Part shown: in pieces, positions 28,608-28,812 of the stretch | Layout of the letters: each line of letters opens with the position of its first letter | Position numbering within the stretch: the stretch's first letter is position 1 | Source of the DNA: Octopus vulgaris | Taxonomy: Eukaryota | Length of the DNA: 64,000 bases | NCBI GenBank assembly: GCA_951406725.2 | Contig: OX597816.1 | Coordinates: 133,176,001-133,240,000 of the forward strand | Direction: 5' to 3' | Notes under the pieces: generated by a model | What the model was told of the DNA's origin: nothing | What the model saw: only the letters and a program-made list of their open reading frames with translations | Databases searched by the model: none | Made by a program: the position numbers and the translations under genes

Positions 28608-28812
28608 TAGATGCAGCACGGACTTTGTCAGTGAACAGGTCGCGGATTTTAGCGACGAAAATATTTTGACAAATTAAACTTAAATGTTGAAGTGAATCGA
28701 ACGGCTTTTGTGTGTTTCTTAAATGGCTTATAAACACCTTCCACGCTGCAATTGTTTTCGTTTCAGCACACGATCTCAGATCAAATTACTTGCTATGCGA
28801 GTACATCTCCGT
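28608..28812 (+). mobile_element. Short hammerhead-bearing (pLTR-like) repeat, family H2
   Basis: Near-identical to 39758-39904; ends in (TA)n. Confidence 0.65.
28624..28673 (+). ncRNA. Minimal type-I hammerhead ribozyme motif, G3-C8 core variant (copy 1)
   Basis: TTTGTCA-GTGAACA-G-GTCGC-GGATTTTA-GCGAC-GAAA-ATAT-T-T-TGACAAA: 7-bp stem I, 5-bp stem II, GAAA, palindromic AATATT stem III. Confidence 0.7.

Follow-up and report, generated by a model that had tools for sequence, protein, structure and literature searches.

Anatomy and fold of the motif

We examined a 64,000-nt stretch of the Octopus vulgaris genome (GenBank assembly GCA_951406725.2, contig OX597816.1, positions 133,176,001 to 133,240,000 of the forward strand; hereafter the window), in which two truncated ends of a Penelope-like element (PLE) each carry a 50-nt hammerhead-type ribozyme motif. 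The two motifs, at 28624-28673 (copy 1) and 39774-39823 (copy 2) on the plus strand, are identical letter for letter in a direct comparison and lie within a longer identity of 147 nt (28608-28754 = 39758-39904). In both, core positions 3 and 8 hold G and C instead of the canonical C and G, a reversal that, judged from the sequence comparisons below, looks selected rather than decayed.

Copy 1 is a type I motif with a minimal stem III; core positions are numbered by the established hammerhead convention. Stem I pairs 28624-28630 with 28667-28673 (7 bp). The core strand GUGAACA follows at 28631-28637 (G3 at 28631, then U4, G5, A6 and A7, C8 at 28636 and A9 at 28637), with an extra G at 28638 before G10.1. 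Stem II and its loop occupy 28639-28656, with 5 bp between 28639-28643 and 28652-28656 and G10.1-C11.1 as the closing pair. The segment 28657-28666 comprises GAAA (28657-28660), the palindrome AAUAUU (28660-28665, with A15.1 at 28660 and U16.1 at 28665) and U17 at 28666; the triplet is UUU, and the predicted cut falls after 28666. The literal C3 and G8 of CUGANGA are thus absent, and a Watson-Crick 3-8 pair is kept as G-C. U4, G5, A6, A9, G12, A13, A14, the A15.1-U16.1 pair and H17 are all present, with column counts taken from 40 copies. Also present are the traits of Penelope-type minimal hammerheads, namely the extra nucleotide that separates positions 9 and 10.1, G10.1-C11.1 and a palindrome at positions 15-16, judged against the consensus in the text and supplement of PMC4209133 (here and below, statements about published work refer to the portions of each source that were covered). 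An initial annotation of the window, made from the sequence alone, had described this identical pair with its stems, core, GAAA and Penelope-type palindromic stem III, and the description proved accurate.

The core is flanked by stems I and II in a three-way junction. The folding energy of copy 1 is -14.7 kcal/mol (z = -3.4), a value equalled by one in 200 shuffled sequences. Stems I and II pair with probabilities of 0.9-1.0 in contexts of 50, 148 and 204 nt, except for the outermost pair (0.4-0.7), while in a 92-nt context stem I is gone from the minimum-energy fold and mostly kept in the centroid. A descriptor that demands 5 bp or more in each stem and a Watson-Crick 3-8 pair of any kind matched only the two motif copies in the window. 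Because the same descriptor gave 7 matches per 100 composition-matched random windows, the fold alone is suggestive and not decisive, and the case for a hammerhead is carried by the position of the motif in its element and by its homologues.

The host element and its copies in the window

Both window copies are truncated ends of a PLE. Insertion 1 consists of a main arm at 28315-28812 (plus strand), a 5′-truncated 3′ end of the element (its pseudo-long terminal repeat, pLTR) with 95-97% identity to a further locus of the family, L046, and of an inverted arm at 28210-28316 (minus strand) that lacks the ribozyme motif. Insertion 2 is a short copy at 39758-39904 (plus strand), which runs from the preferred 5′ end of genomic copies to the first of two preferred 3′ ends, and its inverted arm at 39654-39756 (minus strand) begins 3′ of the motif. 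The inverted arm on each copy and the upstream reach of copy 1 to 28315 had been missed by the initial annotation. Each insertion ends at its 3′ junction in a (TA)n microsatellite (28812-29011, the likely insertion target, and 39905-40294), a junction common to most other copies of the family. The first 30 codons of the element frame occupy 28723-28812 (plus strand), with a likely start ATG at 28723 that aligns with the frame starts of two sister families. No element-encoded protein was found within the 64-kb window.

The element as a whole is represented by L046, where an open reading frame stands between two pLTRs; two motifs on the same strand are separated by 4,261 nt, and an inverted copy is also present. 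The frame contains the reverse transcriptase (RT) motifs DKSG and YVDD, a linker of the form C-x3-C-xx-C (the CX2-5CxxC linker, at residue 710 of protein P0001) and, at the C terminus, a GIY-YIG domain (VYxIxC...YIGET). In Pfam, GIY-YIG scored E = 1.6e-4 with 22.3 bits, slightly below the cut-off of 22.6, and no RT match was obtained for P0001. The nearest named protein relative is annotated as Octopus vulgaris, and a 152-residue segment of it matches this genome at 100%. Tandem and inverted pLTRs, an optional tail and (TA)n targets were all seen among family copies. By these features the host fits a protein-coding Neptune-type PLE, with Nematis as another possible placement; the likeness is to published descriptions and not to named reference elements, and our tree is made up of unnamed relatives only. 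The repeat around the motif had initially been taken for a non-autonomous, retrozyme-like family, a view that does not hold: it is the pLTR of an element with an RT and GIY-YIG frame, and the short copies are by-products of that element.

G3-C8 across the genome

A search of the 2.8-Gb genome with positions 3 and 8 left free returned 6,905 matches (control, 0), among which 6,323 carry G3-C8, 379 have G3 but not C8, and 203 lack G3. Among the 100 non-G3 copies listed, C3 occurs in 10 and G8 in none of those 10, so that no C3-G8 copy is found there and G3-C8 is the family consensus, as had been proposed. A looser G3-C8 pattern gave 8,343 matches (260 for its control). The fourth Watson-Crick option, A3-U8, occurs in two copies (contig C2, positions 56248166 and 59417701), which probably arose by double decay through transitions.

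The reversed pair is older than most of these copies. In middle-aged copies (80-91% identity) GTGAACA is mostly kept and loop II is different, and an older sub-lineage of eight copies with 72-82% identity to the young family retains G3 and C8 in all eight. Between the young and the old sequences, none of 13 core columns changed, compared with 18 of 72 columns outside the core; the free position N7 went from A to C. One pair in each stem changed in a compensatory manner (U-A to G-C in stem I, C-G to U-A in stem II), which bears out the expected conservation of the stems across copies. The palindrome is shortened to AAUU in the comparison of young with old, and the fourth pair of stem I is mismatched in four of the eight older copies. 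At the level of sequence, young and old copies differ as would a hammerhead held by purifying selection once the swap had occurred. We therefore regard the family as a young, high-copy G3-C8 family whose swap itself is, by the same comparison, not recent. The initial reading of a young Penelope-related family in which G3-C8 is fixed was sound, and the swap is shared with the 72-82% sub-lineage.

Further copies and motifs were noted in the course of these searches. Locus L061:2611-3952 is a tandem array of about eight units of 170-190 nt with a G3-C8 motif in each, possibly a retrozyme-like or satellite derivative and a natural dimer substrate. Contigs from four differently coded organisms hold the family, and the GTGAACA core is visible in their loose ends in three runs; two of the four runs are only guessed to be RNA, and no RNA start, end, strand or level can be read from them. 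Other repeat families of the same genome carry canonical CUGANGA minimal hammerheads (L050:5073, minus strand; L058:3115, plus strand; L031:2318, plus strand), the last of which sits after a different, 486-aa frame with a GIY-YIG-like end.

The 3-8 pair in related elements

Two sister families in the same genome have the motif in the homologous position. Family 2 (54% protein identity) has the same layout, and its motif is C3-G8 in all 15 copies listed. In family 3 (L111-L140) the pair is U3-A8 in 29 of 30 copies, comprising 24 with TTGAAAA, two with one other core change and three read by eye, and C3-A8 in the remaining one; the motif stands before the homologous frame start in 30/30 loci and behind a related frame in 4/30. 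The three families form one clade with a support of 100 in a quick tree, in which the family-3 rows occupy less than 30% of the columns. Family 2 (L073:2829-2879; also L074-L078 and L080) is very young: its frames are open over 1,310-1,312 aa, and copies occur in tandem; its motif combines the canonical C3-G8 with a bulged stem I and an imperfect palindrome. Family 3 is high-copy (3,279 first-look candidates) with a 4-nt palindrome, and several of its copies begin about 14 nt upstream of the core.

Scanning 77 metagenome and genome loci of relatives without any rule on positions 3 and 8 yielded 31 motifs, all on the coding strand (shuffled control: one match across three rounds). The 3-8 pair is Watson-Crick in every one (30 C-G, 1 U-A), and U17 is present in 27. 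Four further motifs, found with a looser scan or by eye, are C-G (L211, L222) or U-A (L214, L216). The motif of the metagenome relative L211 (4965-5018) has a canonical core with a reversed 15.1-16.1 pair (U15.1-A16.1) and a 6-nt palindrome. An alignment of the 14 relatives with the extra nucleotide (eight rows lacking it were left out to keep the register) contains 10 C-G pairs, four U-A pairs and no unpaired case, with a 3-8 covariation of 0.77 vs 0.22 when shuffled. A covariance model built from these 14 relatives, none of which is G3-C8, ranked both window copies first (24.8 bits, E = 0.006), ahead of a next window match of 18.4 bits; it scored two of the eight older sub-lineage copies, weakly. 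One more model match of 22.9 bits lies just 3′ of related frames (L226:6195-6238, L228:4912-4955).

Within the near clade the 3-8 pair is kept in all 11 motif-bearing families (permutation p ~0.0004, a value that ignores relatedness and includes family 3, which came from a scan requiring pairing). The hammerhead homology proposed at the outset is thus supported by sister families that have this motif in the homologous position and by covarying relatives. The swap looks selected because the relatives keep a Watson-Crick 3-8 pair, the older sub-lineage changes in a compensatory manner, and a model free of G3-C8 ranks the window copies first.

Rfam reported no hammerhead in the window (150 of 158 rows listed) or in a 211-nt region. 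Since it also missed eight loci with related motifs, most of them canonical, this miss is uninformative. The earlier contention that standard searches overlook the motif holds by construction for CUGANGA descriptors, and the Rfam result adds nothing to it. A search of prokaryote genomes gave one weak, irrelevant match; a prokaryote assembly contig (L287) has a weak match to a Penelope-like RT (23% identity), possibly eukaryotic contamination.

Ends of genomic copies

We mapped the ends of 75 copies picked by a downstream anchor on contig C1, counting positions from G3. Their 3′ ends fall at +121 to +128 (29 copies), +150 (1) and +179 to +187 (45), and the two preferred sites, corresponding to ~28755 and ~28812 in the window, both lie within the first 30 codons of the element. 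The 5′ ends are more dispersed, with 22 at -26 to -18, 5 further upstream, 17 at -17 to -1, 16 at 0 to +33, none at +34 to +38 and 15 beyond. A 1-nt indel that misled the alignment probably accounts for the starts at -7. Seven starts cluster at +42 to +45. We weighed two origins for them, trimming of cut products and RT stops at stem I, and adopted neither, since the cluster can be accounted for by AT microhomology with the (TA)n target.

Many copies start about 22 nt upstream of the core and with an extra G. In the first 100 of 1,202 matches, the purine before the AGATG start is G in 87, while the element itself has T or C before AGATG and the genome is AT-rich; part of the extra G comes from inverted arms (3/10 in one sample). 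An extra 5′ G is a mark left by reverse transcription of capped RNA. These ends point to a capped transcription start at about 28609, with the preferred 5′ end at 28609-28610 (plus strand), and to RT priming inside the element frame on uncut RNA templates.

The same two letters are also the AG of an acceptor-like signal: a branch-point and acceptor-like sequence at 28591-28610 finishes exactly at the preferred 5′ end and could be either an intron end or a promoter element. Splicing at this AG was considered as the source of the 5′ ends. No shared upstream exon is seen in those starts, 18 of the 22 examined, that lack the element's own upstream sequence (L195 was reassigned by eye), and we therefore prefer a cap-copied G over splicing. 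An intron in read-through RNA is possible.

Two further features of the window were noted. The third-ranked covariance-model match (54099-54171; 18.4 bits, E = 0.18) has a canonical CUGAAGA, a long insert and poor stems, and is possibly a decayed hammerhead. Just upstream of insertion 2, a repeat at 39237-39642 recurs inverted at 52036-52443 (82%). Its ends presumably resemble those of Helitron-type elements.

Interpretation and alternatives

We consider it probable that the motif is a Penelope-type minimal hammerhead with a G3-C8 pair, a slow ribozyme that would cut after 28666 with the assistance of a second copy or of a protein. The RNA would begin, capped, at about 28609 and carry the motif in its 5′ leader, about 50 nt before the likely ATG at 28723, and the motif would recur at the 3′ end of read-through transcripts. 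The RT of the element may prime in the first 30 codons, at ~28755 or ~28812, and run to the capped end, a route from internal sites to the cap that would yield the thousands of 150-210-nt copies, copy 2 of the window among them. The inserted templates would then be uncut RNA, and cleavage would take place only when a second copy completes stem III or a protein helps. A leader cut after 28666 would strip the cap 57 nt before the ATG, and read-through RNA cut at its 3′ end would lose the priming sites. Since either cut would counteract insertion, a leaky brake or a processing switch suits the ribozyme better than a part in making the insertion template. We put forward only tentatively the broader claim that this is the first natural active G3-C8 lineage, with at least 8,000 copies, selected and serving as a slow cap-removing switch, and that CUGANGA searches miss a hidden class of ribozymes.

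Several observations weigh against a cutting ribozyme or against its selection. The AAUAUU duplex of stem III is very weak (-0.2 kcal/mol), and there is no stable stem III in the monomer, which is normal for Penelope-type minimal motifs. The unconstrained fold of the dimer differs from a double hammerhead, in an energy model that holds neither tertiary contacts nor proteins. The triplet UUU departs from RUH, the consensus of most hammerheads (PMC7936874); it had initially been called suboptimal, and U17 is not anomalous in this group (27/31). Penelope minimal hammerheads are weakly active even as dimers (PMC4209133), and the published C3G/G8C double mutant gave partial rescue only (PMC11167929). 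None of the 75 copies starts within 2 nt of the predicted cut (+36), and a fully open frame was found in none of four near-complete family-1 copies, the longest open stretch (839 aa) being in a 5′-truncated copy. On the side of selection, the absence of core changes between sub-lineages reaches no more than p ~0.02 at a 25% background rate, and the old copies were found from the G3-C8 pattern with matches centred on the motif, which favours conserved cores. Many of the 31 metagenome motifs are near-duplicates and so not independent. Finally, family 2 and L212 have C at position 9; the clade thus tolerates core changes, and this drift could reflect relaxed catalysis.

Some of these points would equally suit a hammerhead-derived motif that still folds but no longer cuts, a structured signal for protein binding or for control of leader translation in which the 3-8 pair serves shape. 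We regard this as unlikely, though not negligibly so. The lack of copies ending at the cut, the very weak stem III and the drift at position 9 all agree with it, as does the finding that catalytic mutants had no effect on in vitro insertion by a related element (PMC11167929). It is harder to reconcile with the core, where all 13 columns are the same in both sub-lineages and N7, the only free position, differs, with Watson-Crick pairing at 3-8 in 14/14 relatives, and with the presence of that pair in the conformation active in catalysis (PMC3884650). Neutral decay, by which two chance mutations would have killed a canonical master copy that was then amplified, leaving the G-C complementarity as a coincidence, is very improbable and already largely refuted. 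A young burst can indeed fix any master-copy sequence, the swap needs an unpaired intermediate, and hammerheads are dispensable in some Penelope-like clades (PMC8557442); yet G3-C8 persists in 8/8 older copies at 72-82% identity, accompanied by compensatory stem changes, and all 11 near-clade families are paired (with the caveats on that p value given above).

Lower still in our estimate is a role at the level of DNA, in which the motif would be part of an internal promoter or of splicing at the acceptor-like site, with an inherited but idle hammerhead appearance. The motif does lie 15-65 nt downstream of the inferred start, the acceptor-like signal ends at 28610, and Penelope pLTRs contain an internal promoter and a 5′ intron (PMC8557442), but covariation in stems I and II and at 3-8 is not expected of a promoter element. 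We find least probable of all an independent non-autonomous retrozyme that spreads by small circular RNAs from double cleavage. Most copies are short and non-coding, only 5/75 extend more than 26 nt upstream of the core, and the L061 array has units of ~170-190 nt; against this, the copies do not end where units running from cut to cut would, the sequence consists of the element's pLTR and the first codons of its frame, and the copies are mostly dispersed or inverted rather than tandem.

Comparison with known systems

Penelope minimal hammerheads with an extra nucleotide and a palindromic stem III, natural U3-A8 pairs and the tolerance of the swap in vitro are already known. What sets the present case apart from one aberrant copy is a G3-C8 pair fixed in thousands of copies and retained through compensatory change, together with the presence of C-G, U-A and G-C versions within a single genome. 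In the active hammerhead the tertiary pair C3-G8 is central; its reversal has been used as a rescue test in the laboratory, and natural covariation of the pair is reported, in the literature covered, only as U3-A8. A wild-type G3-C8 family with C3-G8 and U3-A8 sisters in the same genome lends the pair evolutionary support and offers a ready-made set for kinetics, and censuses based on CUGANGA undercount such motifs by thousands per genome. Priority for a natural G3-C8 hammerhead is uncertain. Lunse et al. 2017 is said to hold about 150,000 Penelope-associated variants and would be the likeliest place for a prior report. That study and Przybilski and Hammann 2007 lie outside our literature comparison, in which no natural G3-C8 hammerhead was found. 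The portions of PMC11167929, PMC8495972 and PMC3884650 covered describe G3-C8 as an engineered variant only. The comparison also took in parts of PMC6765202, PMC6155905, PMC10085705, PMC7936874 and PMC11875169; supplement file 1 of PMC4209133, the alignments of PMC3088659 and the bioRxiv supplements lie outside this negative result and may hold G3-C8 rows.

Like the minimal type I hammerheads of PLEs (Cervera and de la Pena 2014, PMC4209133), the motif is of type I topology, carries an extra nucleotide, G10.1-C11.1 and a palindromic stem III, is found in both pLTRs and in dispersed truncated copies, and belongs to a group in which U17 is frequent. It differs in its G3-C8 pair, as G3 is absent from the 56-row alignment of that work, where every core starts with C or U, and U3-A8 is the only covariation reported in the portions covered; a longer stem I (7 bp) and the UUU triplet further set it apart. 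Natural U3-A8 hammerheads (Perreault et al. 2011, PMC3088659; Schistosoma Cercyon, PMC4209133) likewise show a compensatory change at 3-8, which recurs in our family 3 and in three metagenome relatives. U3-A8 keeps the pyrimidine at 3 and the purine at 8 and is reachable via a U-G wobble, whereas G3-C8 reverses both and would therefore have needed an unpaired intermediate.

At the level of the element, the Neptune clade of endonuclease-positive PLEs (Craig et al. 2021, PMC8557442) has the same RT, CX2-5CxxC linker and C-terminal GIY-YIG, as well as tandem and inverted pLTRs, an optional tail and (TA)n targets, with the difference that the tail between the two 3′ ends is ~60 nt here vs 30-40 in Neptune. 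Animal non-LTR (long terminal repeat) retrozymes (bioRxiv 10.64898/2026.07.22.740005) resemble our copies as short non-coding, pLTR-related repeats with type I hammerheads; those are tandem hammerhead units, whereas most copies here are ends of a coding element, single or inverted.

The hammerhead of the PAc Poseidon element (Frangieh et al. 2024, PMC11167929) parallels the octopus motif in several respects. It lies near the start of the open reading frame, overlapping the ATG where our motif ends about 50 nt before it, and two RT start sites inside the frame give two 3′ ends. Cleavage requires the element protein, uncut RNA is the dominant insertion substrate, and no RNA end was detected at the cut site in the portions covered. 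Uncut RNA appears as the template here too, read in our case from genomic copy ends. These ends bear on the purpose of Penelope hammerheads: if the inserted DNA is copied from RNA that is uncut and probably capped, cleavage is unlikely to delimit the template and would more probably regulate the RNA. The engineered C3G/G8C version of the PAc hammerhead carries the same swap and partly restores cleavage; what is a laboratory rescue mutant there is the wild type of thousands of copies in the octopus genome.
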